Shown: positions 12,233 to 64,000 of the stretch, one piece after another | How the letters are laid out: every line of letters begins with the position of its first letter | How positions within the stretch are numbered: the stretch's first letter is position 1 | IMG/VR virus record: IMGVR_UViG_3300032156_000002 | Span: 9,023 to 73,022 of that record | Source of the DNA: a virus | Lineage: Duplodnaviria; Heunggongvirae; Uroviricota; Caudoviricetes | Direction: 5' to 3' (one strand) | DNA: 64,000 nucleotides | Translations under genes and position numbers: made by a program | Notes under the pieces: model-generated | Database searches by the model: none | What the model was told of the DNA's origin: nothing | What the model saw: only the letters and a program-made list of their open reading frames with translations

Positions 12233-12264
12233 TAATATACCGCGTGCGGAACAGTTTGTCAAGC
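12233..12264 (-). promoter_or_regulatory. Conserved promoter, family copy 3, firing leftward.
   Basis: Reverse complement reads gcTTGACAaactgttccgcacgcGGTATATTag. Confidence 0.5.
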
Positions 12265-12660: not shown

Positions 12661-12714
12661 CTGGAATGCGCCGGTGCTTATTCAAGCCTCGGGCCTTTCG
12701 CTGGAATATGGCGA

Positions 12715-12746
12715 TTCTTATTCATCGTTCCGCTTGTGGTAGAATA
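12715..12746 (+). promoter_or_regulatory. Rightward promoter of the gmd operon, a degenerate member of the conserved family.
   Basis: ttattcatcgttccgcttgTGGTAGAAT with an extended -10. Its spacer resembles that of the other family copies. Confidence 0.35.
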
Positions 12747-12752
12747 GGGGCC

Positions 12753-31680: not shown

Positions 31681-32624
31681 GCAAGTACGCTGGCCGTGCG
31701 TCGCCAAGGGCGCGCGGCGTTCCTTCGGAGGACACAGTGAAAGCCAAGGGTCAAGCAGGGACCGTTATTTCCATTACGCTCGGCGTCGTAGCGTTTCTCG
31801 CAATTCTACTGGTGCTGGGGTCGTGCAGTCCGGTCGAGTACGGCAACGTCCGGCTCGTCACGCAGTTCGGCGCGCTGACCGGCACGGTGTTCCACGAAGG
31901 GATGAACTGGAAAACGCCGTTCATCCAAGGGACAGTCGAGGTGCCTATCATGGTCCGCTCCTACGAGACCAGCGACCATCCCGAAAGCACGCAAGCGAAC
32001 TACCCGGACTACACCGTGGATGCGCAGACCTCGGACGGCCAGCAAATCACCGTCAGTTACACGGTCCTGTTCCGCATCCCGGCGGACCGCGCCATTGAAA
32101 TCGTGCGCAATGTCGGGCCGATGAAGATGGTCGTGGAGAACGTGGTGAAGGCGCACAGTCGCAACCTCGTGCGCATCCTTGCTCAGAACTACAAGGCGGG
32201 CGACCTCTACAGCGGCGTGGGCATTGCAGAGTATGAGGCCGAGGTGGGCAAGGCCCTCGAATTCGAATATGGCCGCTACGGCGTGATTCTCGACAGTTTC
32301 CTCGTGCGCAAGGTATCCTTCGACGCCGACTACGTGACCGCGATGGAGCAAAAGCAGATTGCCCTCGAAGCGGTCACGACCGAAAAGCACAAGGCCGAGG
32401 CCGCCGAATACCAGAAGCAACAGAAGATTCGAGACGCAGAGGCGAATGCCCAGTCAACCAAGTTGGGCGCGGACGCGGAAGCCTACAGCATCACGGTGCG
32501 CGGCAAGGCGCTTGCGGACAACCCGGACATCATCAAATGGGAGTTCGTGCATAACCTCGCCACCGCCAAGTGGCTGATGATTCCAAGTGACGGTCTGATA
32601 CCGATGCTCAATCTCGGTGAATGA
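31677..32624 (+). CDS. SPFH/band-7 (prohibitin/HflC-like) domain membrane protein.
   Basis: N-terminal TM, then an SPFH-like core and a Glu/Ala/Lys-rich coiled coil. Internal Met of ORF 31398..32624. Confidence 0.65.
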   Translation: MSKYAGRASPRARGVPSEDTVKAKGQAGTVISITLGVVAFLAILLVLGSCSPVEYGNVRLVTQFGALTGTVFHEGMNWKTPFIQGTVEVPIMVRSYETSDHPESTQANYPDYTVDAQTSDGQQITVSYTVLFRIPADRAIEIVRNVGPMKMVVENVVKAHSRNLVRILAQNYKAGDLYSGVGIAEYEAEVGKALEFEYGRYGVILDSFLVRKVSFDADYVTAMEQKQIALEAVTTEKHKAEAAEYQKQQKIRDAEANAQSTKLGADAEAYSITVRGKALADNPDIIKWEFVHNLATAKWLMIPSDGLIPMLNLGE

Positions 32625-48339: not shown

Positions 48340-50766
48340 ATGGCAAAGCCTACTGACCCAACCGATAACGCGCGCGCCCTGCATCTGCCCGCGTACCTCA
48401 ACCGCGTGGTCCCCTACTGGGGGCATCCGGGCTGGCTCATGGCCGAGCGGTGGCGCTCGTTCGTGCGCAATCAGGCGCTCTGCCTCGTCTGTCGCGACAC
48501 ACTCATTCAGAACGTATTATCAACCCCGTGGGATGTCGTGGCGAAGGACCCCGGCGACAAGCAAAGCCCCAGCCTCAAGAAGTCCATTGACCGAATCAAG
48601 AAAGTCCTCGAGGACGCCGAGGGCGACTTCGACACATTCTGCGAACTCGTATTGCAGGACATGCTCGACATTCCGTTCGGCGGCGCGTTCGAGGTGGGCC
48701 GCGAGGACGACTCGCCCGACGGCGATGTGCTGTGGATAGAACACATTGACGGTGCGACACTTCTGCCCACTGGCGACCCGGATGACCCGGTTGAACAACG
48801 GGTCAAGCAGATGCCCACGCGCACCGTCAGATTTCCAAAGTATGCCATCGAGCGGTTGTACGTGACGCCGCGCCCGGAGATTGACCGCAAGGGATGGGGC
48901 ATGGCCCCGCCTGAGAAGGCGTACCTCGCCATTGAGATGCTGTTCCGCGGCGACCGCTATTACGCGAATCTCTTGCTCGACACGCCCGAGGCGGGCATCC
49001 TCGACCTGATTGACATGGAGGAACAGGATGCCGAGGATTGGATTGCCAATGCCAAGGCTCTGTTCACTGGAATCGACGGATTCAAGGTGCCCGTTCTCTA
49101 TCAGCACACAAAACCCGCCGTGTGGATTCCTTTCAACCGCCCTCCCACCGACCTGCTATACGACAAGACAACCATCAAGTACGCGCAAATCCTTGCCGCG
49201 GCTTACGGGATGCGACTCTCTGACATCGGCATGGAGGACATGGGCGGCGAGAAAACTCTTGCGGGCGTTATCCGGGGAGAGCGGCAATCGAGGCGCAGTG
49301 GACAGGCACTTGTCCGAACCAAACTTGAGAACGCCATGGACCGCGTTGTTGGAGACAAACTCAAATTCATCTGGAAGATAGACGATGACGAAGTGACGCT
49401 CGGCAAGGGCCGCGCCGTGATGACATACGTGCAAGGGCTGACGGCCGCCAAGGAAGCGGGTTTCATTGACGCGGCGGAAGGGCGGCGCGAATTGGTCGCG
49501 ACCGGCGTGCTCAAGGTCGAGATTGACCCCGAGGCTTTGCCTCCGCCTCCGGCGATGCCCGGCGCTATTGACCCGGCGACCGGCCTTCCCATCATGCCGC
49601 CGAATCCTCTTGAGGCGGCGGCCAGCGGCACGTCATCCGCGGAGTTGGGCGGGGTCCCCGTGAGTCAGGGCGGGCGAGGCGATAGTGGACTGCTGACACA
49701 GCGCGGTATTGCCGGAACGCGAACCACAGAGCAACTGCAAGCCGAGATGGCGCGGATTATCAAACCGGCGCTCACCCTCGTGGTCGAGCGCGCCGAGGAA
49801 CCGCGATTGCGCAGGCTTGTGCGCGCGGTAACAACGGCCATGGTCCCCAAGGTGGAGCGAACTTTCCTCGACCTCACCGATGAACAAATCGAGGAAACGT
49901 GGCTCCCCGAGATGCTGGCCTTCGACTTCGACGAGCCGAACGAGGTCGAGAACGCCGTGTTGCGAAGTGAGGCCGACGAACTGCGGGTCGAGGTCGAAAA
50001 GCATCTGGCCGATGACCCGTGGTGGAGAACAGCCACCGACGCCCGCAAGGACGAAATCATGGTCGTGATGCGCGCGGCGGCGGAGGCCGGGGCGGTGAAC
50101 GCGGGCTATGCCATCGTGCACGCGCTGTACGAGGCGGGCCAGCGGCGTGACTACGCCATGACGGGATATTCATTCAACCTCAGGAACAGGGCGACCATCG
50201 CCTTGCTTGAGGAGCGCGCGGCTAATCTCGTGCGCTGGGTGGACGAAGCGACCAAGACCTTCATCCGGCGTGTCGTGGTAGCCGGTGTGCGGCAGGGTTT
50301 GAGTTCGCCGGAGATTGCGCAGGCCATTCGTGACGGCGCGACCGCCGAACACATCCTGCAAGTAGATGGCTTCATCGGCGATGTCACGAAACTCATCCGC
50401 GAGGGACTCGTGGAGATGAGCGAGGCGCGGAGCAACTCGATTGTCAATACCGAAATCGCGCACGCCGAAACGACCGGGCGACTCGTGCAGTTCAAGATGT
50501 CCGGCCTGACCACGAAGGCGTGGGTCCACCGCGGCAAACGCGGCGTAACAGCCAAGGGCAACGTGCACCCATGTCCCCTGTGCGCGGGCAACGAGGCCAT
50601 GGGTTTTGTGCCGATTGACTTTGCGTACCCGACCGTGTTCCGCAATGAACCGTCGCCCGTGCCGCCCGCGCATCCGAGCGTGTGCCACTGCGACATCATG
50701 TTCAACGAGGCCGAACTTCTGGCCAAGGTGGGGACGAACGAATACCGTCCGTGGAACGGGCGGTAG
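48340..50766 (+). CDS. Portal protein fused to a C-terminal phage Mu F-like head-morphogenesis domain.
   Basis: Lies after terL. The C-terminal roughly 150 aa, with IVNTEIAHAETTGR...CPLCAGNEAMGFVPIDFAYPT, matches the Mu F/SPP1 gp7 family. The N-terminal roughly 500 aa has portal-like size and position. Confidence 0.7.
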   Translation: MAKPTDPTDNARALHLPAYLNRVVPYWGHPGWLMAERWRSFVRNQALCLVCRDTLIQNVLSTPWDVVAKDPGDKQSPSLKKSIDRIKKVLEDAEGDFDTFCELVLQDMLDIPFGGAFEVGREDDSPDGDVLWIEHIDGATLLPTGDPDDPVEQRVKQMPTRTVRFPKYAIERLYVTPRPEIDRKGWGMAPPEKAYLAIEMLFRGDRYYANLLLDTPEAGILDLIDMEEQDAEDWIANAKALFTGIDGFKVPVLYQHTKPAVWIPFNRPPTDLLYDKTTIKYAQILAAAYGMRLSDIGMEDMGGEKTLAGVIRGERQSRRSGQALVRTKLENAMDRVVGDKLKFIWKIDDDEVTLGKGRAVMTYVQGLTAAKEAGFIDAAEGRRELVATGVLKVEIDPEALPPPPAMPGAIDPATGLPIMPPNPLEAAASGTSSAELGGVPVSQGGRGDSGLLTQRGIAGTRTTEQLQAEMARIIKPALTLVVERAEEPRLRRLVRAVTTAMVPKVERTFLDLTDEQIEETWLPEMLAFDFDEPNEVENAVLRSEADELRVEVEKHLADDPWWRTATDARKDEIMVVMRAAAEAGAVNAGYAIVHALYEAGQRRDYAMTGYSFNLRNRATIALLEERAANLVRWVDEATKTFIRRVVVAGVRQGLSSPEIAQAIRDGATAEHILQVDGFIGDVTKLIREGLVEMSEARSNSIVNTEIAHAETTGRLVQFKMSGLTTKAWVHRGKRGVTAKGNVHPCPLCAGNEAMGFVPIDFAYPTVFRNEPSPVPPAHPSVCHCDIMFNEAELLAKVGTNEYRPWNGR

Positions 50767-51073: not shown

Positions 51074-51580
51074 ATGCCAAGGGCAACAGCAACAGCAACA
51101 AGCAAGGCGGCGAAGGACGCGACGGAACCGAAGGCGACGGACACCACGAAGGTCCTGCCCGACGATGGGCCGTCGAAGGTACCGCCGGAACACGCGACGG
51201 AGATTTACCACATCCGGCGCACCCTAGCGCGCGCGAGCAACCCTGCCGCGGGCGCGTGGACTGGACCGGACGCCGACGAGGGAATAGGTAAGATGCTCAA
51301 AGAGGGTTGGGGCGTCAAGGATTTTCAAATCCTTGGCATCAACCCGGAAGGTGTACTCGCGCTGTGGATTCTGACCCGCTCGGAAGAGGGAGCGGGGCTG
51401 TCGGAAGCCAAGCACATCGTCCGCACGTTGTCGGGCGGCGGCCAACTTGGCACGGTCACGGGCTTTCAGGCCGATGCCGTGCTGTCGGGCTACCTGTCGG
51501 ACGGCTGGCGGCTTGAGTTCGTGCGCAACATCGGCTTCGACACCAACGGCATCAACATGGCGTGGATGCTCGTGCGATGA
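51074..51580 (+). CDS. Hypothetical protein, 168 aa.
   Basis: ORF track. Confidence 0.45.
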   Translation: MPRATATATSKAAKDATEPKATDTTKVLPDDGPSKVPPEHATEIYHIRRTLARASNPAAGAWTGPDADEGIGKMLKEGWGVKDFQILGINPEGVLALWILTRSEEGAGLSEAKHIVRTLSGGGQLGTVTGFQADAVLSGYLSDGWRLEFVRNIGFDTNGINMAWMLVR

Positions 51581-51873
51581 ACCTTATCGCCTATGCGGTC
51601 GTGGGGCGGCTCCTGATATGGCTCTGGCAGACATCCGGCCCCACGACTCGCATCTGGAAGTTGCATCCGTTTCTCACTGAGCAAGCGGAGTGCGACTTTT
51701 GCACCGGCTGTTGGGTGTACTTCGCGCTGGCCTTTCTGTTCGGGCAGAACTGGCTTGCGCCCATCTACGTGCCTGTGCTCAGTGAGTTCGTCACGGGCGT
51801 TGTGGCGAGTTTCATTGCCCACCTCGCATCGGCCGGGTGGCAAATGAAGTGGGGAGTGGTCGAGTTGCGCTAG
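51577..51873 (+). CDS. Membrane protein of about 98 aa.
   Basis: Internal Met of ORF 51562..51873. ATGA overlap with the upstream stop. Confidence 0.4.
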   Translation: MNLIAYAVVGRLLIWLWQTSGPTTRIWKLHPFLTEQAECDFCTGCWVYFALAFLFGQNWLAPIYVPVLSEFVTGVVASFIAHLASAGWQMKWGVVELR

Positions 51874-51885: not shown

Positions 51886-54800
51886 ATGCACATGCCCTCG
51901 TGGGCGGCGCAGATTATCAACAGGGCGGCGTTAGCGGAAGCCAATCGCGCCGCCTATGCCTGCGCGTTCCTGTCGCGCTACGGCGACGACGATGTTGACG
52001 AGGCGGCGCTTGCGAAGATTGCCGCCTACCAGCGCCGTGTCTCCGGCATTGCCGGTGTTCTCAAGCGCCCGTTCGAGCCGCAGGAGCCGGGCACCTTCCA
52101 CATCTCGCTGGCCTACTTCCCCGACGCGACCGACGAACAGATAGCGGCTCTGAAAGAGAACCTGTCGCTTCCGATTCCGTTCATCGTGACCGCGCGCGGG
52201 ATAAAGGTCTTTCCGCCCAATGGCGAGGGCCTGAGCGCCGTCGTGTTGGACGTGACCGCAACGCCCGCCCTCCTGCGCCTGCAATCGGAGATTATCAATC
52301 GGGCACTCTCGATGGACCTGAAACTGGGCGACTTCGCGGACCCGACAATCTACAGTCCCCATGTCACCCTTGGGTATAGCACCCTTGAGCAGAAGGACGT
52401 ACCGACCAGCATCGAGCCGTTCGAGTTGTGGGTCCGCGGATTTTCAATCACGCGCCACGACTACGACGTACAGTTGGATGTACGACTACCGCTCGTGCGC
52501 GAGCGCGGGCCGCTCGTGACCAGCGGCGGCCCCGGCTCCGGGCACTTCGGCCACGAGGGTAGGCCGGGCGAGGTCGGCGGCAGTCTGCCCGGCGGAAAAC
52601 TCTCTGTAGTTTATGACGAGCACCTAACAACCGAGGCCGAATACCGGAACGGAGTTATTGCCGTCGGGCCGAAGTTTTACGAACTCGACGATGCGGGACG
52701 GGCGCAAGTCATGGCGCACGAGGAAGGTCACGCCCTGAGCGACCAAATGCTGGCCGATGGGCGGGCGTTCGCGCTTCAAGACCAAGGTGCATTCACGGGA
52801 AAATTCGGCGACGAGACGGTTGATGGAATCAACGGACAACTTACTCCGGGCGAGAACGTAGCCGAGGCCTATGCTGTATGGAAACTCGACCCCGATTGGT
52901 TGTTGGAGCACTACCCACTTGCGCATCAGGCTATCGCCGAAGCGATGGCGCGCGGCGGATTGTCCACTGGGGAGCCGGGCGAGGGTGGATTATCCGAGGA
53001 GCACCAGAAGATATGGGAGGAGACCCGCGCCTCCTACGAGACTGCTCTCGCCGAGAAGTACGGAGTCGCCGAGGAACAGCACTGGGACACGGGGACATGG
53101 ATTGGGAGTGACGGCCGACTGCTTGCGCCCAACCAAGACCATCAGGCAATGGCCCTCGACGTATTGGGCTGGGGTAAGGACCTGACGCCCGGAACGAAGG
53201 AATGGGACGATAAGGGCGAGGCCGCGACGAACGAACTCGTGGCCGCCGGGTTGATTCGGTACAACGTGGCCGAGGCGGAGGTGTTCTTCGACATTCCCTC
53301 GAGGGAGGAAACGACGCATAAGCAGAAGGACGCCATGGCGCGCATCTTGACGATGCTTGCCGCCCGCAATGGGCAATGGCCATATCTTGCCATCAATGTC
53401 GGCCCGCCGTTTGAGGAACATGATTACGAGGGAAGCATCATGGGCGTGAGGGAAGGATACAGATTCCTCGGCCTGTCGGAAATGGGCTATGGCGACAAGG
53501 TTATCACACGCGGCGGACCCGGAAGTGGTCACTTTGGCCACGAGGGTAGGCCGGGCGAGGTCGGCGGAAGCGCACCCTCGGGCGGATTGTCAACTGGCGA
53601 GGCGGGCGCGCCCATTCGCCTGACGAAGGCGGCGCTGAATCGAATCCTCACGTGGTCATCCAGCCGCTACAATATGTACCCCAAACACGTCGCGGTGCAA
53701 CTTGCCTACGAGGTCCTGAACGGGGAGCGACCTGACGCCCCGTACCTGCTCCTCGAATCCGGCAACTACACGGAGGCGGCGGGCGGATTGTCATACGGCG
53801 AGTACATGGTCAATGGCCCCGAGGGCTACATTGTCGGCGGCAAGTACAAGGGGAGCGGGAACACTATAACGAACCCGGCCGACTTCGAGGAACTTGGCCC
53901 GCGCACCTACTTCGACATCGGCCTGAGGACGGGCGAGCCGTGGGCAGTGCACGGCGCGCGGCCGGACCTGTACGATTGGCAAGACGAGACCGTAGAACAC
54001 ATCCCGAAGGAAATGACCGACCGGGTGTGGGGCTACCATGCCGAGGCCGCGGGCGACATTTTCCGCGAGGTGGCCTTGCACGGTTCGGACGCGCCAGATG
54101 GCGGCTACCTGACGGAGAAACTGAAACGGGTCGAGAAGTCCTACCGAACCAGCGACCGCGACATCATCTTTTCCAATCCCCTCGCCCCCGATGACGAGGC
54201 GCGCCGGGTCGAGATGCTCGATGCGTGGCGGTCGGTAGACTATACCGAATTGCCCAAGCAACTGCGACTGGCCATTGGCGTGAATATCGGCCTGTTGGAA
54301 CGCGACCCGAGTGCCGTGCAGTCTGCGATTGAGTCGCTTCGCGCAATGCAGGCGAGCGAGTATGTCGAGCGCGGAGGTGAGGGGTCGGGCCACCACGGAC
54401 ACAAGGGCGTCCCCGGACATCGAGGCGGCAGTGCGCCGTCTGGATTATCAACCGGCGGGACCGAAATCGAGATGCACTTGACGGAAGGCGCGCTGTACGA
54501 TTCTGCCGCTCAGAGCGCATGGATTAGAGCAATCAAGGGAGCGGTGGACCGGCTTTCGGAGCGGGGCATCAAATTACCCGGAAGGCTAATTGTCAGCGAC
54601 TCGTTCCTCGACATCGGAAAGTTCGCCGAGATACGGATGCAGGATAAGTCGGTCGTGACGGACGAGATGGCCGAGTCTTGGGCGCGGGGAAACTTCGAGT
54701 ATACGATTGCCGCCATGTGCGTGCAGACCCACGACAAGAACGACGCCATGTTCTTTGTCAATCCGTCGTGGCGCAGACGTTCGCACGGCATCGTCCCCGA

Positions 54801-57705
54801 CGAAAGAAGGGACCGGACAATAGAGGCGATGCTTTCCGATGACGGCCTGAACTTCATGGCCGCTCACGAGTTCGGCCACGCGCTTGACTTCATCGCTGAC
54901 GGCGAGAAGCAAAAATGGGTCGGACCGGTACCGGAAGCCTATAGCGACGCACTGGACACAATCTGTCACTACGACCGCGACAAACTGGATAACGAGTACC
55001 GCGCCGATGTCATTGCCGCGGCGCTGATGGGAAGGCCGCCAGAGCGCGTGACCGCAGTAGGGGGCACCTTCACAGAGGACATGACTAAGGTCGGGCAGAG
55101 GCTTTTGGGCATGGCCGAGACCCGCCTGACAACGCGCACCGCGCCCGGAATGATTGACGAGGAATATGTCACCGGCATGCGTCTCGCGTTTATCCCGGTC
55201 CCGAGCGGCATTATGTACGAGCCAGTTGTGGAGCGTGGCGGACCGGGTAGCGGCCACTTCGGCCACGCCGGTCGGCCCGGCGAGGTGGGCGGGAGTGCGC
55301 CGAGTGAAGGATTGTCAACTGGCGAGCCGGGCAAGCGAATCGTCAAGGTCCTATCGGTTGAGGACACGCGCGAGTACGTCGAGGGCAGGGACGATAAATT
55401 CCGCCCCGTGCCCGGCTCCGGCACAGAGCATACTTGCGACCGATGCGGGCGCTCGCACGAGGTGCACGCAACTGTCGAGTTAGAGGACGGTTCGGAGATG
55501 GTTGTTGGCACCGGGTGCATGAACGCCGAATTCAGCGAGGCTGTGCGCAGGCAGATGCAGAACAAGGAACGGGCGGCAAGGCGTGTACGGATTCTTGAGG
55601 CCGAGATGGCCGCAAAAAAGGTGGAACGAGAAAAGTGGGACGCGGAATACGAAAAGGTAAAGCAACTGCCGATGCCGGAAATAACCGAGAAGGAATTGGA
55701 GACTGGGCGCTATCCCGTCACTGAGTATCGCATGGGCGATGCCGATGTCTGGAATGACCCGCGGTATGGCCTGACCGATGAGCGGCGCAGGCTCTTGTAC
55801 TCGAACTGGTGGCGCAAGCGAATGTTTGAGCGCGGCTTCGAGAGCAACCGACCGGCGTATGATGAGGCGGATTATCTGAAGCGCATTGCGCGCGCACGAG
55901 CCGTCCTAGAAGCCGATGTGGCACCCGAGGTCGTGGAGCGCGGCGGACCCGGCAGTGGCCACTTCAAGCACAAGGGTGTGCCGGGGGAGCGTGGCGGCAG
56001 TGCTCCGAGCGGACGCGCGCCTGCACCGGGGGCCAAGGGTAGCGTCGAGCCTATCCTCTCGCGCCTGTATTCGCCCGAGGCGGGAGTGGCGTTCGTCAAC
56101 TTCAGGGGCAAGTACGCACTGGCCGACGTGGAGCACGGAGCGATTATCAATCGTCAGGGCAAGGTCCTCATCGAACGCACAGACCACAACCCCAAGGAAA
56201 TCTTCTGGCCCTACAGCATGATAGCCCGAATGGAAGGCAAGGTGATGGTCCACAACCACCCGACCGGGGCCGTTCTATCGGATTCGGACGTGATGTTCAT
56301 GCTCAAGAGCAAGTGCTCGGCGATTGTGGCCACGGGGCGGTGGGGTACCTACATCGCAAGCGTGGACCCCGGAGCCGACTCGCTACAGATTATCAATGCC
56401 CTCGGTCGGGCAAACGAGGAAATCTACTCGACCATGAAGGCGTTACCCGACTTCGAGAAAATGTCCGAGGCGGACAAGTGGACAATTCACTTGTCGGAGG
56501 TCTTTGAAACAGTGGAGGACACGACGGATGGAAAGTTCAGATTCGATTGGGAGCCGCCAGCGCCGGAGAATCAACCTGCGGAGCCGCTGGGATACGCTAA
56601 GGCCGAGACGGTCCAGCGCATGGACATCGAGGCTGGCGTGACACTGGACGGCCTCGAGGACGGCGATTACGAGAAGGCAACGATTATCACTGCCGACCAG
56701 ATGTGGGCGCTGATGCAGGGCAAGACCATCACCGCGAATGGCAAGACCATGACCCGCGCGGACGGCCCGTACATGCTCGGAGAGGCGGAGGCCGAGGCCG
56801 TGGAGCGCGGCGGAGCGGGGAGCGGCCATCACAAGCACAAAGGCATCATTGGCCATCGCGGAGGGAGCGCGCCGTCGAATCTTCCGAATGTCGAACCGCC
56901 GCCCGGATACGAGCAAGCACGAGGATTGCGCAAGGCGATTGACATTCTCAATCCGCCGAGAACGAGGAAGTTCGCGAGGGTTATCGGTGCGCTTGAGGCG
57001 ATTGGCCGCGTTCACGGCGTTACCATGTGGCCCATACCGCTCACCACAACGTCATCGAAAACGAAAGGCGGGGCCTACAGGCGCGAGGAATACACCCACA
57101 AGCCACTAGGGATAGCCCTCGTCACCGGGAAGGCCGACCTCGGGGTTGCCGCCGTGCACGAGTTCGGTCACTACATGGATGACTGGGGGCTGGGTCGCGG
57201 ATTCTTCGCAAGCAACAGGCCGGACATCACGAACCTGCCAGAGGAAGCGGGCCTCCACGGACCGTCGGTTTATGAGCAGAACACGGAACTACGCGAGGCG
57301 CTTGATGAGTGGTATCAGGCCGTCATAGATAGCAAGGCGGCGAAGGACTTGGAGCGCGGCGTGTTCAACTCGACGACCATGAAGAAGATTGTCGCCGCGG
57401 ACGGAACGACGACATGGCATGCCGTCCGTGAATCGGGCGTGGGCGGCCAACACAGGTTCTTGGCCAACGTTCGGCAGACGCACGAGTATTTTGCGCGGTC
57501 GTATTCCCAATACATCGCCTTGCGCGGCGGCGACGCCGAGTTGAAGGGCGAAATAGACGGCATCCTGCGCGATGCCAAGAACCCGCCGAGCGTGCCCGGC
57601 TACAAAACCATGGCCTTCACTCAATACTGGGAGTGGGATGACTTCGAGCCAATCGCGAGCGCGTTCGATAAGATTTTCAGGAGTACACAATGGGCGAGCC
57701 AATAG
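51886..57705 (+). CDS. Giant polyvalent protein, 1939 aa. It has an N-terminal 2H (LigT-like) phosphoesterase, three HExxH zincin-like peptidase domains, a Zn-ribbon and a RadC-like JAB/MPN domain. Its modules are separated by 6 copies of the RGGPGSGHFGHxGRPGxVGGS linker.
   Basis: 2H motifs HISLAY at about 52100 and HVTLGY at about 52360. HEEGH at about 52716, HEFGH at about 54865 and HEFGH at about 57157. VHNHPTGAVLSDSD at about 56251. Linker copies at about 52525, 53511, 54370, 55234, 55933 and 56803. Confidence 0.7.
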   Translation: MHMPSWAAQIINRAALAEANRAAYACAFLSRYGDDDVDEAALAKIAAYQRRVSGIAGVLKRPFEPQEPGTFHISLAYFPDATDEQIAALKENLSLPIPFIVTARGIKVFPPNGEGLSAVVLDVTATPALLRLQSEIINRALSMDLKLGDFADPTIYSPHVTLGYSTLEQKDVPTSIEPFELWVRGFSITRHDYDVQLDVRLPLVRERGPLVTSGGPGSGHFGHEGRPGEVGGSLPGGKLSVVYDEHLTTEAEYRNGVIAVGPKFYELDDAGRAQVMAHEEGHALSDQMLADGRAFALQDQGAFTGKFGDETVDGINGQLTPGENVAEAYAVWKLDPDWLLEHYPLAHQAIAEAMARGGLSTGEPGEGGLSEEHQKIWEETRASYETALAEKYGVAEEQHWDTGTWIGSDGRLLAPNQDHQAMALDVLGWGKDLTPGTKEWDDKGEAATNELVAAGLIRYNVAEAEVFFDIPSREETTHKQKDAMARILTMLAARNGQWPYLAINVGPPFEEHDYEGSIMGVREGYRFLGLSEMGYGDKVITRGGPGSGHFGHEGRPGEVGGSAPSGGLSTGEAGAPIRLTKAALNRILTWSSSRYNMYPKHVAVQLAYEVLNGERPDAPYLLLESGNYTEAAGGLSYGEYMVNGPEGYIVGGKYKGSGNTITNPADFEELGPRTYFDIGLRTGEPWAVHGARPDLYDWQDETVEHIPKEMTDRVWGYHAEAAGDIFREVALHGSDAPDGGYLTEKLKRVEKSYRTSDRDIIFSNPLAPDDEARRVEMLDAWRSVDYTELPKQLRLAIGVNIGLLERDPSAVQSAIESLRAMQASEYVERGGEGSGHHGHKGVPGHRGGSAPSGLSTGGTEIEMHLTEGALYDSAAQSAWIRAIKGAVDRLSERGIKLPGRLIVSDSFLDIGKFAEIRMQDKSVVTDEMAESWARGNFEYTIAAMCVQTHDKNDAMFFVNPSWRRRSHGIVPDERRDRTIEAMLSDDGLNFMAAHEFGHALDFIADGEKQKWVGPVPEAYSDALDTICHYDRDKLDNEYRADVIAAALMGRPPERVTAVGGTFTEDMTKVGQRLLGMAETRLTTRTAPGMIDEEYVTGMRLAFIPVPSGIMYEPVVERGGPGSGHFGHAGRPGEVGGSAPSEGLSTGEPGKRIVKVLSVEDTREYVEGRDDKFRPVPGSGTEHTCDRCGRSHEVHATVELEDGSEMVVGTGCMNAEFSEAVRRQMQNKERAARRVRILEAEMAAKKVEREKWDAEYEKVKQLPMPEITEKELETGRYPVTEYRMGDADVWNDPRYGLTDERRRLLYSNWWRKRMFERGFESNRPAYDEADYLKRIARARAVLEADVAPEVVERGGPGSGHFKHKGVPGERGGSAPSGRAPAPGAKGSVEPILSRLYSPEAGVAFVNFRGKYALADVEHGAIINRQGKVLIERTDHNPKEIFWPYSMIARMEGKVMVHNHPTGAVLSDSDVMFMLKSKCSAIVATGRWGTYIASVDPGADSLQIINALGRANEEIYSTMKALPDFEKMSEADKWTIHLSEVFETVEDTTDGKFRFDWEPPAPENQPAEPLGYAKAETVQRMDIEAGVTLDGLEDGDYEKATIITADQMWALMQGKTITANGKTMTRADGPYMLGEAEAEAVERGGAGSGHHKHKGIIGHRGGSAPSNLPNVEPPPGYEQARGLRKAIDILNPPRTRKFARVIGALEAIGRVHGVTMWPIPLTTTSSKTKGGAYRREEYTHKPLGIALVTGKADLGVAAVHEFGHYMDDWGLGRGFFASNRPDITNLPEEAGLHGPSVYEQNTELREALDEWYQAVIDSKAAKDLERGVFNSTTMKKIVAADGTTTWHAVRESGVGGQHRFLANVRQTHEYFARSYSQYIALRGGDAELKGEIDGILRDAKNPPSVPGYKTMAFTQYWEWDDFEPIASAFDKIFRSTQWASQ

Positions 57706-59606
57706 AAATCAACCTGTCTGATGACGGCCTCGCGGATGATGTCGAAGATGTCCGCGCGCGCCTCGCTGTCTCCCGCGGTCTTCACCGGATTGTCATTCGC
57801 GGCGGGCCGGGCAGTGGATTTGCTGGCCACGAAGGCGTGCCCGGACATCTTGGCGGAAGCGCACCCAGCGCGACCGGCCCCAAAGAGGAAGCGCCTGCGG
57901 TTCCGGCGGCTGGCAAGACTGGCGAAGTGGCGCAAGCGGGCGGAAAGAAAAAGGGCCACGTGAAGGGCTACACTGACCTGCACTCGAAATTCGAGCACGG
58001 GCCTGCGCTCGATGACTACTTGGTTGGAGCCGGGGGACCGCTGGGCCTGCGCCTCGCATCGCCGGACAAGGATGCCTTCCTCTCGAAGGATTCGGAGGAC
58101 CTGCGCAGTCGAAACGCGAAGTTGTGGTGGGAGCAGGTCGAGACCTCCTACCGCGAGTGGATTCAGCAACAGTTTGGGGCCAACCCTTGGGAGCAAGCCC
58201 GAGACCCTGAGACGAATCAGGCCAAATCGAGCGACGCATTCGCGACCGCCTACTACGCGAATCTTGAACACCTCGCGCCGTACATGAAGCAGTACACAGA
58301 CATGACCAAGGGCACGGTTGACGGAAGCGCCGCGGAGGCGGCACAGGCCGACTTCGAGGTAGCCCGCAATCTCGGACCCTACATGGTCAATGCGGAGCGT
58401 GTTTTCAATCAGGCCGCCGGTGGTGGTCGTCCCACGCGAGATGCAGTCAAGGCGCTTGTGGATGCCGACGAGTCAATCCCGCGGGCGCTCAAACCCCGCG
58501 CCACAGCGTTTGCCATCCTGAGTCTGATGCGCAAGTATTCGGCCAGTGACCCGGCCTACGCCATGACCATGCGCGGGGGTCCCCTGCGCAGGATTGTCAT
58601 TACTCGCGGCGGAGCCGGTAGCGGCCACTTCGGGCACGAGGGCGTCCCCGGCCACCTTGGCGGGAGCAAGGATAGTCCGGGTAAAGGGAATGACGCTCCC
58701 AAGACGGGAGCAACGCCCGGCCAGAAGGTCACGGCCACGGGCCGCCCGGTGCCGCCGAACGCGGCGTTGATTGACTCGTCTGACAAGCACCTGCTTGAGC
58801 AGGGGTCACAGCGCATCGGCGAAACGGTCGAGTCTTACGCCTACACGACCGAGGAGTGGTTGGACGCGGCAGAGGAAGTCATGGCCGAGCAACCGCCCGA
58901 GGTTGCGAAGAAGATTGCCGACGTGGAGGCGGCACTCAAGACGGGCGAGCCGACATCGAGACTCTACTCTGACGGCAAGGGCAATTACGACGGCGAGCGT
59001 GCCAAGTTGCACGATGGCATTCTGGAAAAAATGTTTGGCCGCGCGACGCCCGTTGCCGAGGGCGAGACGCCGCGCATGACACTAACGGGCGGTTTGCCCG
59101 GCTCTGGCAAGAGCACCGTGCTTTCGGCGAGGCGCGAGCAGGGTTTGGCCGACCTCGAGGGCGCGGTTCACATTGACTCGGACTGGGTGAAGGAACAGTT
59201 GCCCGAGTACGAGGGCTGGAACGCGGCGCTTGTGCACGACGAAGCCTCTGACATCATCTCGCGGGCAATGACGCGCGCGCGCGCAGAGCACTACAGCGTG
59301 GTCTACGACACGACCATGAAAACCACCCAAGAGACGGTGAACTTCGTGAACGCGGCCAAGGAAGCGGGTTACAGCGCGCACGTCATCTATGTGGACGTTC
59401 CGATGAAGATGAGTATGCGCCGCGCCATCAGTCGCTTCATGGACCCGAAATCAGGGCGTTACGTCAGCCCGTATTACATTGCGTCGAACGATAGCAAGAA
59501 CGTAGGAACCTTTGGAACGCTCAAGGCTCTCGTGGACACGTGGGAGCACTGGGACAACGCGACGCCGGGCGGCACGCCGACCCTCATCGCATCGAGCAAG
59601 CCGTAG
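57690..59606 (+). CDS. Polyvalent protein, 638 aa, with 2 linker motifs and a C-terminal P-loop kinase domain of the zeta-toxin or polynucleotide-kinase type.
   Basis: Linkers at about 57797 and 58603. Walker A TGGLPGSGKST at about 59088 followed by a kinase-like fold. Confidence 0.65.
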   Translation: MGEPIEINLSDDGLADDVEDVRARLAVSRGLHRIVIRGGPGSGFAGHEGVPGHLGGSAPSATGPKEEAPAVPAAGKTGEVAQAGGKKKGHVKGYTDLHSKFEHGPALDDYLVGAGGPLGLRLASPDKDAFLSKDSEDLRSRNAKLWWEQVETSYREWIQQQFGANPWEQARDPETNQAKSSDAFATAYYANLEHLAPYMKQYTDMTKGTVDGSAAEAAQADFEVARNLGPYMVNAERVFNQAAGGGRPTRDAVKALVDADESIPRALKPRATAFAILSLMRKYSASDPAYAMTMRGGPLRRIVITRGGAGSGHFGHEGVPGHLGGSKDSPGKGNDAPKTGATPGQKVTATGRPVPPNAALIDSSDKHLLEQGSQRIGETVESYAYTTEEWLDAAEEVMAEQPPEVAKKIADVEAALKTGEPTSRLYSDGKGNYDGERAKLHDGILEKMFGRATPVAEGETPRMTLTGGLPGSGKSTVLSARREQGLADLEGAVHIDSDWVKEQLPEYEGWNAALVHDEASDIISRAMTRARAEHYSVVYDTTMKTTQETVNFVNAAKEAGYSAHVIYVDVPMKMSMRRAISRFMDPKSGRYVSPYYIASNDSKNVGTFGTLKALVDTWEHWDNATPGGTPTLIASSKP

Positions 59607-59617
59607 GAGGCAGGACC

Positions 59618-61363
59618 ATGGCAGACAAAGAAATCAAACCCACGGAGCCAACGCCGGAGCCGACTGGCCCCAGCGGGTCAGCGCCACGGGGTGAGCAACC
59701 CGGCGGCCCAAGCGGGTCCACGGCGGGCGCATCGCGGCGCGTGGTGAAGATTCAGTTTGTGGATGACGGGGATGATGCCGAGTTGACTAAGGCGCTTGCG
59801 GGCTTCCGCAGTTCGGACACGGAGGCGCAGACCGGGCATTCTCAAAAGGGTGTTGTCATCCCGCCAGCCGAGGCCGAGACCGCCAAGCAACCTGCGAAAC
59901 CTCGGGGTCTACTACGGCGCGTCAGTTTGACCGAGCGACTCATGCCCGCGCAGACAGACCCGCGCCAGCCGGTCGCAGAACCGATGCGCGGCAGTGTGCT
60001 CACGCTGGACGAGATGGCGGCTATCCTGCGCGCGCGCCTGCGTGTGCTAGGCGAGAATATCGGTATCGAGGAGGCGCGTATACGCGAGGCGGCGGAGATT
60101 CTCACCGCTGTATGCGGCGGCGTGATTGACCTTGACATGGCGTTGCAGTGGGCCGAGGAGGGACAGAAGGCGGGCGTGTGGGCGCGTGACCCGTGGGGAT
60201 ACATTATCACTCCCACGCTCGTGCATGAAGCCGCGGCCCTGATTGCGTGGCAGGACGCGGGACTGACCGTGCGTGGCGGGCCGGGGTCCGGGCACTTTTC
60301 ACACAAAGGCCGACCGGGGCAGGTCGGCGGTAGCGAGGACACGCCCGGCAAGGGCGATGATGCGCCTCAGACCGGAGGCGTAGGCGGTAGCCCGAGCGAA
60401 AGTCAGAGTTTTGCCGCTGGCATGAAGGACAAGGACTATGACGCATGGGTAACGAAACTCTCTGTGATGCCCATGAGGAAACTGCGCGCATGGCAGGATG
60501 TGGTGATGGCGCAGTTAGAGGAATTGGACAAGCAACCGCAGGGCGAGGCAAACAAGACTGCGGGCATCGAGCAACAGTTGTGGCAAGAGGCACTGGCGAA
60601 CGCCGTGGCCCGCAAGAACTGGCCCAAGGATTACACCGACCCATTCTCATTGCCCGGTTGGTTTGCTGAATATCAGGCTGGCCAAGGCGCGGCAATCGGC
60701 GAACCCCAACCCTCCAAGGCGCAGGAGGGATTATCAACCGGCGAGCCGGTGTCCGGGGACACCACGCGCGTCGGGCTTACGAGTGCGCGACCGGGCCGAA
60801 CGAACGAGGAAGTGTTCGCCGCGATGCGTGAATTCGATGACCAACTCGGAGGCATCGAGACCGTAACATCGCACCGCGTCCAGCCGGGCGTCGGCGGGTA
60901 TATGGGCGACCACGAGGCGACGTGGATTATCGAGTACACGGGTAATGGCGAGGCCAAGAAACTCGTGGCCGCCACGGCTAAGAAGTGGAATCAGGACAGC
61001 GCCTTGCTTATTACCGGACCCGACAAGGGACAGGCGACCATCTCTACGGACTTCGAATTCGATGACCCGGTGACGCCGACCGAACGCAAGGCAGTCGAGA
61101 CAGCGATGATTGCGGCGGCGGAAAAAACAGGACAGTTCCGGGGTTGGCAGTGGTACCGCCAGCCGCACAAGTACAGCGTGCTCCGCGCCGTGTGCGTCCC
61201 TCAGTGGAAGGGTGTACCGGAGACACACAAGCAGGTTGCGGGAACGCTGGCAGACTTTTTCAAACAGATGGGTATGAACCACACCCTTCACGAGTACGAA
61301 GTGGGCGTGGAAGTGCTCGAAAAGGAGGGCGACAATGCCTACGACACCGTTCTCAGTCAGTGA
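59618..61363 (+). CDS. Polyvalent protein, 581 aa, with 1 linker motif and unknown domains.
   Basis: Internal Met of ORF 59540..61363 with a GGAGG RBS. Linker VRGGPGSGHFSHKGRPGQVGGSEDTPGKGDDAPQTG at about 60272. Confidence 0.55.
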   Translation: MADKEIKPTEPTPEPTGPSGSAPRGEQPGGPSGSTAGASRRVVKIQFVDDGDDAELTKALAGFRSSDTEAQTGHSQKGVVIPPAEAETAKQPAKPRGLLRRVSLTERLMPAQTDPRQPVAEPMRGSVLTLDEMAAILRARLRVLGENIGIEEARIREAAEILTAVCGGVIDLDMALQWAEEGQKAGVWARDPWGYIITPTLVHEAAALIAWQDAGLTVRGGPGSGHFSHKGRPGQVGGSEDTPGKGDDAPQTGGVGGSPSESQSFAAGMKDKDYDAWVTKLSVMPMRKLRAWQDVVMAQLEELDKQPQGEANKTAGIEQQLWQEALANAVARKNWPKDYTDPFSLPGWFAEYQAGQGAAIGEPQPSKAQEGLSTGEPVSGDTTRVGLTSARPGRTNEEVFAAMREFDDQLGGIETVTSHRVQPGVGGYMGDHEATWIIEYTGNGEAKKLVAATAKKWNQDSALLITGPDKGQATISTDFEFDDPVTPTERKAVETAMIAAAEKTGQFRGWQWYRQPHKYSVLRAVCVPQWKGVPETHKQVAGTLADFFKQMGMNHTLHEYEVGVEVLEKEGDNAYDTVLSQ

Positions 61364-61637
61364 CCTCAAGGACATCCTTGACGGACATCGCAAGGCACAG
61401 GTGAGCGACAAAGAAGCCAAGGTCGAGGATTTCCCCGAGGCTCCTGCGATGCCCACGGGCGACCAGACCGTGGCGGTGTTCTTTTCCAAGCCACAGGCAC
61501 CCGGTGGTGAAGAAACTGAGGCACCAGACTGGGTGAGTGCGACAGAGGCGGGCGATGCGGAAGGTGATGTCGAGGGTTGGCCGCAGAAGCCGGAGACGGA
61601 CCAATCGGGCGGTCCGACATTCAGCGAGGAGTCCTAA
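61335..61637 (+). CDS. Hypothetical acidic 100 aa protein.
   Basis: ORF track. Confidence 0.35.
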   Translation: MPTTPFSVSDLKDILDGHRKAQVSDKEAKVEDFPEAPAMPTGDQTVAVFFSKPQAPGGEETEAPDWVSATEAGDAEGDVEGWPQKPETDQSGGPTFSEES

Positions 61638-61638
61638 C

Positions 61639-62574
61639 ATGCTTGGCAAAGGTGTCTATCTGTGGAAGGTCTACACGATTGACGGTGGCGACGCGCGCGT
61701 TCTCGCGCGCCGTCTCCATTCGATGCAGGTCCAGCGCCTCGACGTGAAGGTGGCCGACGGCGCGAAGGTCCACGCCATCGCGGCATGGGAGAAGCCCGGC
61801 TGGGGCGAGAACGTCAAGGCCGAGTGGGTCGCCACCTTGCGCGACGAGTGTGCACGCCTGAACTGGCCGATGGAAGTGTGGGGCTTCGGCTTCGACTACG
61901 GATACGACGCAGTGGGCGAGGGAGCAATCCTCGGGTCGCAGGTCAACCGGCTCGGCTTGGACGGTGCCATTGCCGACCCCGAGGGCGTGTTCGAGGGACA
62001 AGTCAATGCGGTTGGCAAGGCGCGCGATATGGGAAGCGCCTACCATGCCGTCTGCCAGAAGCCAATAGCGATTGCCACGTGGGCGCTTTGGAGAAATCCT
62101 GTCACACTCGCACCCTATCACAATGTCGAGTGGGGCAAGGCGCTCATGGAGTGGGCCGACTATGGCGCGCCGATGGTCTACTGGCAAGGGCAAGGCGCAA
62201 AGGCCGCAGTCTCCTACCTCGACAATTGCATTGCTCAGTGGCGGTCTCTCATAACGAAGAAGCCTCTCCTGCCCGCAGGTCGCGCCTACGTGGGCGACGG
62301 TGGGACGGTGGATGTTCCCGGCATCACGGCATTCGGCCAGCGCGTGCGAGAACTCGCCGCGGCGACTGGCATCGTGGCCAGTCCCATCGCAGGTGAGTCG
62401 TGGTGGAATCTCGGGAGTGTCATCAAGTACCCGGACTGCTTGGCCGCTCTCTCGGCCTTGCCGCCCTACGCCACTGGCGTACAACCCTATCCGACCGCGC
62501 CACTTGCCGAATGGGCCGCGGCCTTGACCGCGCACGCGCGAACTCAGGGATACAGGGGACCGAGCCTCGCATGA
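61639..62574 (+). CDS. Hypothetical protein, 311 aa.
   Basis: Internal Met of ORF 61537..62574. No confident domain assignment. Confidence 0.45.
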   Translation: MLGKGVYLWKVYTIDGGDARVLARRLHSMQVQRLDVKVADGAKVHAIAAWEKPGWGENVKAEWVATLRDECARLNWPMEVWGFGFDYGYDAVGEGAILGSQVNRLGLDGAIADPEGVFEGQVNAVGKARDMGSAYHAVCQKPIAIATWALWRNPVTLAPYHNVEWGKALMEWADYGAPMVYWQGQGAKAAVSYLDNCIAQWRSLITKKPLLPAGRAYVGDGGTVDVPGITAFGQRVRELAAATGIVASPIAGESWWNLGSVIKYPDCLAALSALPPYATGVQPYPTAPLAEWAAALTAHARTQGYRGPSLA

Positions 62575-64000
62575 AAACTCTGTCCGGTGCACTCCGCAGG
62601 ATTATCAATCGCGGTGGTCCCGGCTCGGGTCACTATGGCCATCGTGGCCGTCCGGGCCGGGTTGGCGGGAGTCTGGCCGAGGACGGTCTCTCGACAGGCG
62701 AGCCGTCGGCGTGGGCCTCGAAATACAGAACGGGAAGCGGGCCGCTCAATGCGGAGGCGCTTGGCGAGGACGTTCGCCGCGCGGTCGATGAGCGCCCAAG
62801 TCGCGCGACGCATGGGAACACAGGCAAAAACGCATTCTTCCTCGTTGATGGCAAAATCTACTCGTGGGACAAGTGGCAGGAAATACCGAAGGCCGACCTC
62901 CCCCGTGCGGTGCCCGTTCATTCGCACGGCGGCGACAATTGGGAGTGGTTCGTAAAGCAACAGGGACAACTTGAGGACTTCCAACCGCAAAATCCCGCCG
63001 ACATAAAGTTGTGGCTCAAGGGTTTTGCCGCCGGTCACATGGGTCCTATTGCGGCGCTCATCATGCCCGACGGAAGGATGGAGACGCTTGAGATAACCGA
63101 CGCTGTTGACCCTGCGGTGTTCCGCATGAGCATGGCGAAAATAGAGAGCATCATCTATCGAAAGTACCCGGAGAGGTCCGCCTATTACCAAGAACACAAA
63201 TCTGACGCGGACTACCACAACTATAAGCAAGAGGTCGAACTCCTGACGAAGTTCGCACGGGACTACGGGCTACGCTATACCCGGAACCTGCGCTGGCGCG
63301 ACAATCCGACACCCTATTCTTCGCGCGAGATTTTTCTCGAAATGCGTGGCGGCCCCGGCTCAGGTCACTTTGGCCATGCTGGACGACCGGGCGAGGTGGG
63401 CGGGAGTGCGCCGAGCGGAGGATTATCAATCGGTGAGCCGCGCGAGTACGACCCGACTGAGCCGAAATACGGTGTTGAGTTCAAGATGACGGACGACGCC
63501 ATTGGCAGGGCTTGCCGCAAGGGTTGCATTGAGGCGTTGAAAGAGTTTGCCAGCGCCATGCACGCGAGACCGCGCGGCCTGTTGATTACCAATGATGTAG
63601 GATTGTTCTTCGGCGTCTCACCGAACGCCGATGTCGCGCAGAAAATCGAAGGTGGAGCATTCGGGTGCGCCGACGGCCGGAAGATTTGGGTGCAGGACAG
63701 ACTCGATACACAGAAACAGAAAACCTCGTGGATTGAGATGTCCGGCGGCCTCATGCCGGAAGAATTCTCTCCCGGCCACAAGGCGTGGAAGCGAATGGTC
63801 TACCACGAACTGGCCCACATCGCCACGATGTCCGATGTCATGGGCGACATGAGCGGCCTGCAACTCCTGACCGACCCATCCCTAGACCCGGAACCAGCCT
63901 ATAAGGAAGGGGCAGTGAGGCGCTACGGGGATGACATCACCACCATCCAAACCGAATACGTTGCCGACCTCGTTGCGGCCTACGTTGCGAAGGCAAGTGG
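62571..64000 (+). CDS. 3'-truncated polyvalent protein running off the window, with 2 linker motifs and an HExxH zincin-like domain.
   Basis: The frame is open from ATG 62571 to the window end, and is absent from the ORF track because it has no stop. Linkers at about 62610 and 63345. YHELAHI at about 63802. Confidence 0.6.
   Translation, partial: MKTLSGALRRIINRGGPGSGHYGHRGRPGRVGGSLAEDGLSTGEPSAWASKYRTGSGPLNAEALGEDVRRAVDERPSRATHGNTGKNAFFLVDGKIYSWDKWQEIPKADLPRAVPVHSHGGDNWEWFVKQQGQLEDFQPQNPADIKLWLKGFAAGHMGPIAALIMPDGRMETLEITDAVDPAVFRMSMAKIESIIYRKYPERSAYYQEHKSDADYHNYKQEVELLTKFARDYGLRYTRNLRWRDNPTPYSSREIFLEMRGGPGSGHFGHAGRPGEVGGSAPSGGLSIGEPREYDPTEPKYGVEFKMTDDAIGRACRKGCIEALKEFASAMHARPRGLLITNDVGLFFGVSPNADVAQKIEGGAFGCADGRKIWVQDRLDTQKQKTSWIEMSGGLMPEEFSPGHKAWKRMVYHELAHIATMSDVMGDMSGLQLLTDPSLDPEPAYKEGAVRRYGDDITTIQTEYVADLVAAYVAKAS

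Follow-up and report, generated by a model that had tools for sequence, protein, structure and literature searches.

A polar, 20-residue tag heads the modules of giant polyvalent proteins beside the portal–MuF gene of a tailed virus

The 64,000-nucleotide stretch of DNA analysed here (the window) covers positions 9,023 to 73,022 of the IMG/VR record IMGVR_UViG_3300032156_000002, a virus of the Caudoviricetes. Right after its DNA-packaging genes, listing and translation of the open reading frames (ORFs) gave a co-directional run of five ORFs on the + strand (ORFs A to E, here called the train), in which a glycine- and histidine-rich peptide of 20 residues recurs. From its placement we conclude that this peptide, hereafter the tag, is a polar N-terminal leader of nearly every module of about 200 amino acids (aa) and not a symmetric linker. 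The tag appears to be undescribed in the sources that we searched, whereas the polyvalent protein architecture in which it is found is already known. We propose, with a probability of roughly 0.45, that the tag is a site at which modules are released by cleavage, and that it possibly serves as an address as well.

Exactly 11 copies of the pattern GG[PAE]GSG[HF]..H.G..G..GGS were found in the 64 kb by a six-frame regular-expression scan and by a hidden Markov model (HMM) built from the copies; a first-pass annotation of the window, made from the sequence alone, had counted at least 11. All are on the + strand and confined to positions 51886–64000, with six copies in ORF A, two in ORF B, one in ORF C, none in ORF D and two in ORF E. 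Counted from the first G of GG, they lie at 52525–52584 (copy 1, GGPGSGHFGHEGRPGEVGGS), 53512–53571 (copy 2), 54373–54432 (copy 3, with GVPGHRGGS), 55237–55296 (copy 4), 55942–56001 (copy 5, GVPGERGGS), 56809–56868 (copy 6, GIIGHRGGS), 57801–57860 (copy 7), 58608–58667 (copy 8), 60275–60334 (copy 9), 62613–62672 (copy 10) and 63348–63407 (copy 11). The HMM scored them at 55–65 bits, the next best match in the 64 kb reached 8 bits, and shuffling the residues of the five ORFs 2000 times yielded no match. A public assembly (ENA ERZ27248148, contig k141_292607, designated L048) contains this phage as well and is 99.99% identical over an overlap of 12.4 kb. ORF E, which runs off the window, is complete there, with 1663 aa, five tags and a C-terminal HEYGH module. 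Window and L048 together give a train of about 15.7 kb and about 5130 aa with 14 tag copies.

Eleven positions are invariant among the window copies, including His, Ser and GG. Ten of the copies are preceded by Arg after a short hydrophobic stretch (φ-x-φ-x-R, φ being hydrophobic); before copy 1 the residue is Ser. The full unit thus consists of a hydrophobic strand with R/K, the sequence GGPGSG(H/N)xGHxG(R/I/V)PGxxGGS and a spacer of Ala, Pro, Ser and Gly, which in this lineage often contains GLSTGEP. GLS[TI]G[EG] directly follows five copies rather than the six for which GLSTGEPG had been annotated, and two to three more such marks stand free where modules meet inside an ORF, at 52957 and 60728 and, as a degenerate GLRTGE, at 53920. 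At the DNA level the copies are 47–81% identical, and identical codons are used at only 44% of the positions with the same amino acid. Exact shared runs reach 32 and 26 nt in only two pairs of copies and are at most 17 nt in most pairs. The scrambling of synonymous sites indicates conservation at the protein level and not recent DNA duplication, and we therefore reject recent DNA repeats as the source of the copies.

The polarity of the tag was evident from several measures. In BLAST comparisons, module matches between proteins begin at most about 20 residues after a tag, and in two AlphaFold2 (AF2) models the first 16–28 residues after it are disordered. Of 167 multi-copy proteins, 59% have their first tag no more than 60 aa from the N-terminus and 42% no more than 30 aa from it, and 1.8% have their last tag no more than 60 aa from the C-terminus. 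The last tag is followed by a median of 268 aa, a length comparable to the median of 211 aa (never fewer than 52) that separates neighbouring tags, and module sizes are narrow (123–522 aa from the 5th to the 95th percentile). Genes inside trains open with a leader of 14–50 aa that is followed by a tag, and a single-module protein of another locus (L036) consists of a 22-aa leader, a tag and a zeta toxin. Single-linkage clustering of the modules gave one giant cluster, and lists of matches for each module were used instead. The earlier view of the motif as a linker separating domains was right in placing it at evolutionary module boundaries, as the BLAST matches demonstrate, but too symmetric for a polar element. 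Rare exceptions to the polarity are a gene of L025 (4340–7303, − strand) and the short protein P0014. The L025 gene encodes a portal–NUDIX–tag–ART-like–tag protein that ends about 15 residues past its last tag with the conserved tail SAPYLTSTASKLFQR, and is followed by a MuF gene and an XkdF-like protease/scaffold gene.

A close syntenic relative of the phage (L001, JGI 3300048647) reveals that the edges of the tag are where modules are swapped. Identity between window and relative is 92% for module B3, 86% for ORF D, 79% for module C1 and 68% for module A7, and module A2a has an 82% identical counterpart in a different gene, the ORF-E homologue of L001. At tag copy 9 the DNA homology ends exactly at the 5′ edge: the ORF-C homologue of L001 diverges right after ...LTVR, at the R|GG codon boundary, where the window goes on with GGPGSG. 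The ORF-E homologues can be aligned through the tag and GLSTGE and diverge thereafter. Most pairs of tags are too dissimilar in their DNA to support classical homologous recombination. Of the first-pass proposal that imperfect repeats of about 60 bp could drive module shuffling, the exchange at tag edges stands, but synonymous sites in the repeats are scrambled. An HNH endonuclease gene (4676–5134 of L001, − strand), absent from the window, lies between the ORF-D and ORF-E homologues.

Used as a profile against 1.84 billion representative proteins, the 11 copies brought out a large family, with 4294 matching proteins (clusters at 50% identity) at E ≤ 1e-3, 807 at ≤ 1e-10 and 119 at ≤ 1e-30. 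The proteins found are 500–3150 aa long and carry up to 9–10 copies each, and homologues of ORF A have the same tag between LigT, GNAT, ParB, zeta, ART, MuF and portal domains. The consensus of 694 copies from 168 proteins is [LIV][VRI]x[KRL]-GG-P-GSG-[NH]-[FH]-G-H-x-G-R-P-G-[EKQ]-[VR]-GGS-[ALS]-P, with G-R-P conserved at 91% and 88% and with Asn in place of the first His in 47%. When one genome per prokaryotic species was scanned with a DNA pattern, the tag was detected in contigs of metagenome-assembled genomes (MAGs) of Clostridia, Dehalococcoidia, Acidobacteriota, Omnitrophota, Elusimicrobia, Gammaproteobacteria, Rickettsiales, Actinobacteria and three archaeal orders; hosts, including the archaeal ones, are assigned by MAG binning only. 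The G+C content of these contigs ranges from 26% to 64%. Invariance at 11 positions together with scrambled synonymous sites over this range of base composition indicates selection on the peptide.

Two covarying subtypes, GRPG[EKQ]V and G[IV]PGH[RQL], are distinguished at positions 12, 15 and 16 of 562 distinct copies (mutual information 0.37 versus 0.05 for the null, a figure inflated by kinship among copies). They coexist in one protein, and the window has six copies of the former and five of the latter (copies 3 and 5–8). In Firmicute-associated loci of gut Clostridia (L003–L042), GG is mostly preceded by Asp (LDGGPGSGNFGH), and Asn stands in for the first His; a basic residue in 'RGG' is therefore clade-specific. 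Two other His-rich motifs, R-HYGPGxHPGTGTxQxxHxGG and K-HLPGQHDQxxH, occupy positions equivalent to that of the tag after similar leaders in proteins P0061, P0055, P0051, P0068, P0073/74, P0103 and P0176, and may be alternative tags of the same system. A reading of the LRRI leader as a twin-arginine translocation (Tat) signal was rejected: it has no hydrophobic h-region, and LRR[IV] is found upstream of only 19 of 677 copies.

The first-pass annotation did not recognise the motif as a named family, and our searches agree. No Pfam-A, NCBIfam or PHROG model covers the tag, and no description was found in the open-access literature searched by motif strings, although absence there is not proof. 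Among 50,697 phage records, blastn and tblastn gave a 100-nt terminase match only and no protein match to a cultured relative; tblastn with the tag alone gave no match at all, most likely owing to masking by the low-complexity filter. The polyvalent proteins gp030 of cyanophage PSS2 and gp321 of Tunturiibacter phage Tunturi_5 share modules with the family and contain no tag copy, so that the published virion proteomes cannot be used for the tag.

An observation that bears on function is the fusion of tagged modules to portal proteins. In MAG contigs from bacteria, gut Clostridia among them, a Portal_3 or Portal_Mu domain is followed, in some cases via a NUDIX domain, by a tag and an Ntox50 or PBECR3 toxin. 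These fusions place the tag between a fixed part of the virion and a toxin, which would need to be freed in order to act, and they suggest that tagged modules sit inside the head. Peptidase motifs are also associated with the tag. HExxH was found in 42% of tag proteins versus 6.6% of shuffles and JAB in 13.7% versus 0.2%, and the last module carries an excess of each (odds ratio 2.2, p = 0.001 for HExxH; odds ratio 7.5, p = 1e-6 for JAB). ORFs A and E both terminate in a zincin module, namely A7 and the HEYGH module seen in L048. Embedded HExxH/JAB proteases travel with the tag, though not at every locus.

Taken together, these findings suggest the following model. ORFs A, B, C and E would be polyvalent cargo, each a chain of effector or enzyme modules (about 200 residues per module) that enters the head with the portal–MuF machinery and is delivered along with the DNA. 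Far from being a neutral spacer, the tag would be a polar, sequence-specific junction mark on the N-terminal side of the cargo modules, and an exposed site at which these are freed from each other, and from the portal where fused, by proteolysis during head maturation or after ejection. It may double as a handle recognised for encapsidation, as in the capsid-targeting leader of phage T4. Being the sole conserved segment between unrelated modules, it could also act as the joint for exchange between genes and phages. An arrangement of capsid-packaged, multi-effector proteins beside MuF had been proposed from the outset; its architecture, context and module repertoire hold up, and encapsidation itself is, like cleavage and the identity of the protease, something that we infer.

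Confidence in module release by cleavage is limited for this reason, and also by the length of the conserved stretch and the want of a universal protease partner. Several points weigh against it. The tag has about 25 strongly conserved residues, which is much longer than typical protease sites. Its conservation over several portal families and over bacterial and archaeal bins is hard to square with fast-evolving phage proteases, and speaks for a partner that is itself very conserved or for some intrinsic property of the peptide. Neither HExxH nor JAB occurs in five of six portal–(NUDIX)–tag–toxin fusions or in the 4–8 kb around them, so that any protease must often act in trans. We consequently reject an embedded zincin or JAB domain as the universal processing enzyme; the suggestion that these domains cut the linker is contradicted as a general rule. 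No head protease or capsid gene is recognisable 3′ of the train in L001 or L048, and we found no cultured host, virion proteome or cleavage product for any tag-bearing phage. Finally, the tag is kept at the extreme N-terminus of single-module proteins, which suits an address at least as well as cleavage.

This last point belongs to the strongest competitor, which we regard as possible but clearly less probable than release by cleavage: the tag would be an address only, a docking peptide for a conserved procapsid surface (portal/MuF, scaffold or coat), with the proteins remaining intact and the many copies per protein giving avidity. A polar tag at the N-terminus of a protein such as that of L036, where there is nothing to separate, is readily understood as an address, and ORFs A–E, which have no MuF domain of their own, require some route into the head. 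A long conserved peptide in a disordered region is also typical of short linear binding motifs, and the covariation within the tag suggests a defined bound conformation, although kinship of the copies inflates that statistic. However, portal-fused toxins are already in the head and are nevertheless tagged just before the toxin. A conserved partner was not identified either, and the portals belong to different families.

An explanation by mechanics and recombination alone appears unlikely. The tag would then be a flexible, protease-resistant Gly/Pro hinge for modular folding and for threading through portal and tail, conserved mainly through its use as the common joint in module shuffling. Its richness in Gly, the four to five Gly-X-Y triplets, the flanking disordered spacers, the narrow range of module sizes and the breakpoints at tag edges are all as expected of a hinge. 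Such a hinge needs no invariant His, Ser and Gly at 11 positions across 26–64% GC, however. With synonymous sites scrambled and exact runs mostly at most 17 nt, DNA homology would be a poor driver of recombination, and an N-terminal copy joins nothing.

Still less likely, in our assessment, is an activity of the peptide itself. This could be self-processing, by an N-to-O acyl shift at GG|S, metal-assisted hydrolysis at S-x-H or a cut after a ubiquitin-like RGG, or alternatively binding of metal or of DNA by an AT-hook-like GRP element that would hold cargo on the packaged genome. Independence from a partner would account for the very diverse host bins, including archaeal ones, and for the failure to find a universal protease, and the invariant His, Ser and GG and the well-conserved G-R-P are suggestive residues. 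Yet a 20-mer surrounded by disordered sequence would hardly put a peptide bond under strain, the frequent Asn in place of the first His abolishes the S-x-H site, and the archaeal hosts are assigned by binning only. The AT-hook was rejected as a candidate: in the core H-x-G-R-P-G-E the Arg is Val or Ile in 5 of the 11 window copies, and the residue that follows, usually Glu, is acidic in 50% of copies, unlike in AT-hooks, whose R-G-R-P core has basic residues on either side. A chance low-complexity or collagen-like repeat unrelated to domain boundaries, the first-pass annotation's own counter-hypothesis, fits the glycine content and the masking by the BLAST low-complexity filter but has a negligible probability in view of the bit scores (background at most 8), the shuffles, and the occurrence of position-specific residues (invariant His/Ser, near-invariant Arg-Pro) in single units about 200 aa apart at module boundaries. 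Collagen-like repeats, by comparison, form long unbroken Gly-X-Y tracts in which X and Y vary freely, and a tag copy has only four to five triplets.

A bolder formulation, which we consider doubtful though worth stating, is that tailed viruses use the 20-mer, near-universally, as a portable cargo tag that both addresses and frees effector modules; release would then occur via a very conserved partner acting in trans or by self-processing of the peptide. Every tagged ORF could then be interpreted as an effector that the virion delivers. Provided that the tag does mark modules delivered from the head, searches with a 20-residue profile would reveal thousands of candidates for first-strike effectors of uncultured phages, including anti-restriction and RNA-repair enzymes, toxins, kinases and many modules without an assigned function. 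The tag defines a sequence to mutate, which would make the loading, cutting and release of giant polyvalent cargo directly testable, and a portable address or release tag would be useful in phages engineered to deliver chosen proteins. What stands irrespective of experiments is a large, sharply defined, polar junction motif that is unnamed in Pfam, NCBIfam, PHROG and the open literature searched.

The train itself begins with ORF A (51886–57705; 1939 aa, six tags), which comprises modules A1, A2a, A2b, A3a/b, A4, A5, A6 and A7. ORF B (57690–59606; 638 aa, two tags) has a 37-aa leader, and its first 16 nt lie within ORF A. ORF C (59618–61363; 581 aa, one tag) starts at the ATG at 59618, preceded by GGAGG, and its internal GLSTGEP at 60728 precedes a conserved module of about 200 aa. 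ORF D (61639–62574; 311 aa) is the sole untagged member and gave no family or PDB match in Pfam, NCBIfam, PHROG and PDB searches; an untagged gene of 316 aa inside the train of L044 has a similar N-terminus. ORF E (62571–64000) overlaps the stop of ORF D in an ATGA and opens with a 14-aa leader, reading MKTLSGALRRIINR and then GGPGSG. The annotated series of five large ORFs is therefore correct as to number, the length of the first and the truncation of the last, but not for the short, motif-free ORF D.

Searches with the segments between tags identified the annotated 2H, zeta, JAB and A7 zincin domains, and left several segments without a family match (C1, B2, E2, A3 and A5 in Pfam, NCBIfam and PHROG); A2b and C2 gained no assignment either. 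All modules are on the + strand. A1 (51886–52524) is a LigT-like 2H phosphoesterase, as annotated, with HISL at 52099, HVTL at 52360 and matches to Pfam 2_5_RNA_ligase2 (PF13563; 3.4e-6, at 27.6 bits versus a cut-off of 27 marginal) and TIGR02258 (6e-6). According to BLAST module matches, segments A2 and A3 each consist of two modules joined by a bare GLSTGEP-type mark. Of these, A2b (52957–53511) begins at the free-standing GLSTGEP, belongs to a WIGxDG...DHQ family and occurs elsewhere as a tag-flanked module of about 189 aa. A5 is a CxxC module. A SAM-lyase assignment for module C2b was rejected, as the Pfam match (E = 0.008) was unsupported by a five-sequence profile against PDB.

The RadC-like JAB/MPN domain that had been annotated was recovered in A6 (56002–56808), which contains HNHPTGAVLSDSD at 56251–56289. 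Seventeen homologous modules all share the residues E, H, H, P, S and D (E44, H84, H86, S93, D96), and the AF2 model (predicted local distance difference test score 82) gave RadC (2qlc, probability 0.99) and JAMM1 of P. furiosus (5ld9, 0.95) as top Foldseek matches, and also AF2198. A6 has no Pfam match, and its HxH-to-S spacing is one residue below that of the canonical motif. The kinase was likewise confirmed: B3 (58668–59606) is a zeta-toxin/PNK-like P-loop kinase with a Walker A motif, GLPGSGKS, at 59091 and matches to Pfam Zeta_toxin (PF06414; 7e-27, 94.6 bits versus a cut-off of 22.3), AAA_33 (1e-11) and PHROG 16619, 'minor head protein' (2e-11).

The four annotated zincins differ in standing. 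The C-terminal module A7 (56869–57705; HEFGH at 57157) is a gluzincin of the LF/PPEP/MtfA-like type according to fold and profile. A2a (52585–52956; HEEGH at 52717) is zincin-like: H/E/H and a downstream E are invariant in its family, and the best PDB profile match is a weak one to anthrax lethal factor (E = 0.013). A4 (54433–55236; HEFGH at 54865) and E3 (63408–64000; HELAH at 63804) form one family that shares HExxH...EYxAD. The hhalign alignment of this family with that of A7 covers the HExxH helix only (probability 48%), and A4/E3 gave no significant PDB or Pfam match and no independent support for a zincin fold.

The annotated position of the train beside packaging genes and a portal–MuF gene is supported by homology. 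The terminase large subunit (TerL) gene (46583–48172, + strand) matches Pfam Terminase_6N/6C and PHROG 38 (4e-82). The next gene (48340–50766, + strand) encodes an 808-aa portal protein fused to a MuF-like head-morphogenesis domain, with PHROG matches to portal (1.4e-15) and, at aa 590–733, head morphogenesis (4.4e-9). It is without the GH motif, and its C-terminus reads VHPCPLC...PPAHPSVCHC, the MuF-type C..C...PPAHPxCxC signature. Three small genes separate it from the train. The last, directly 5′ of the train (51562–51873, + strand), encodes a small predicted membrane protein that is kept at the same place in relatives; it contains LIWLWQTSGPTTRIWKLHPF, and the N-termini are alike in genes of about 100 aa that precede the polyvalent gene in L002, L043 and L045. 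This protein may be a member of the cargo or head module. On the 3′ side, L048 has a 91-aa gene, a gene for a ChaB-domain protein and further genes without a Pfam or PHROG match. The order TerL, portal, two to three small genes and train is kept in the distant relatives L002, L043, L044 and L045, and the trains of L043 and L044 comprise at least ten successive overlapping large genes.

Elsewhere in the window, a 938-aa GDP-mannose 4,6-dehydratase/epimerase (12219–15035, + strand) has a Pfam match split around LAGLIDADG_3 (aa 564–621), which has the appearance of an intein or of a homing endonuclease inserted into a sugar-nucleotide enzyme; a LAGLIDADG match is also present in the terminase of L045. 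A family-2 glycosyltransferase (16023–17366), an N6/N4 DNA methylase (20562–21956) and an SPFH/Band-7 protein (31398–32624) are encoded on the same strand. Glycosyltransferases and an epimerase flank the train in L001 and L002, which suggests a sugar-modification module in this phage group.

Among known systems, the locus corresponds most closely to the polyvalent proteins of Iyer, Burroughs, Anand, de Souza and Aravind 2017 (PMC5512222), and we conclude that it encodes such proteins, a class that is already known. These, too, are giant multidomain proteins beside head genes (MuF/portal) with 2H phosphoesterase, zeta-like kinase, RadC/JAB and zincin metallopeptidase domains, for which packaging, injection and zincin-mediated processing were predicted; DdrB of phage P1 is processed before packaging (PMC5512222). 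In the window, at least two unrelated enzymatic domains reside in one polypeptide (2H, JAB and zincin in ORF A), a zincin module is present and the genes are phage-encoded beside TerL and portal–MuF, with the same synteny in L002 and L045. Relatives of the train also contain ParB, GNAT, ART, NUDIX and PBECR. The main text of PMC5512222 contains neither 'linker' nor 'glycine' and no conserved junction motif, whereas here a polar 20-mer delimits the modules, and multi-gene trains with translational overlaps are likewise unlike its description. The MuF polymorphic toxins of Jamet et al. 2017 (PMC5576092) share the MuF/portal context and the variable C-terminal toxins, comparable to the portal–tag–toxin fusions, and no junction motif is mentioned there. 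ORFs A–E, however, have no MuF signature and no Pfam or PHROG match to MuF, which is located on the portal gene, and only about 9 of 168 proteins of the tag family carry the signature. A cognate immunity gene was not identified at the locus either, no search aimed at one having been made among the genes 3′ of the train.

Functional parallels can be drawn with four short-peptide systems. Polymorphic toxins have pre-toxin junction motifs, VENN in CdiA and DPxGL in Rhs, the latter being a cleavage site as well. Like the tag, these are short conserved motifs directly 5′ of interchangeable effectors that mark the exchange point, but sequence, delivery (here by a phage head) and reiteration (up to 10 per protein) differ. 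Cargo-loading peptides of encapsulins are usually C-terminal, have a GSL-type consensus and occur once per protein. They resemble the tag as short conserved peptides on a flexible Gly/Pro/Ala linker that bring cargo into an HK97-fold shell, and differ from it in being C-terminal, single and of another consensus. Cleavage at GG is known from the LRGG tail of ubiquitin and SAMP, cut by JAMM proteases and deubiquitinases, from double-glycine leaders of bacteriocins and from viral LxGG sites. The tag is bracketed by φ-x-φ-x-R-GG and x-V-GG-S, and ORF A has a module of the JAB/JAMM fold; on the other hand, no ubiquitin-like fold precedes the GG, many tag loci have no JAB and, to our knowledge, RadC-type JAB domains are not established peptidases. 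We treat this resemblance as a lead only. The fourth parallel is the capsid-targeting sequence (CTS) of phage T4, a leader of internal proteins and Alt that is both an address and a site cleaved by the gp21 prohead protease. It has about 10 aa ending in L/I-x-E, occurs once per protein and, as a conserved leader, flanks hypervariable cargo genes. The tag has no sequence resemblance to it: tagged proteins combine leaders of 14–50 aa with a 20-mer, have no L/I-x-E consensus and, unlike CTS proteins, reiterate the element or fuse it to portals, and no gp21-like protease was found near the train. Both are short, conserved, N-terminal leaders common to otherwise unrelated cargo, head-internal in the case of T4, and a functional analogy between tag and CTS is possible.

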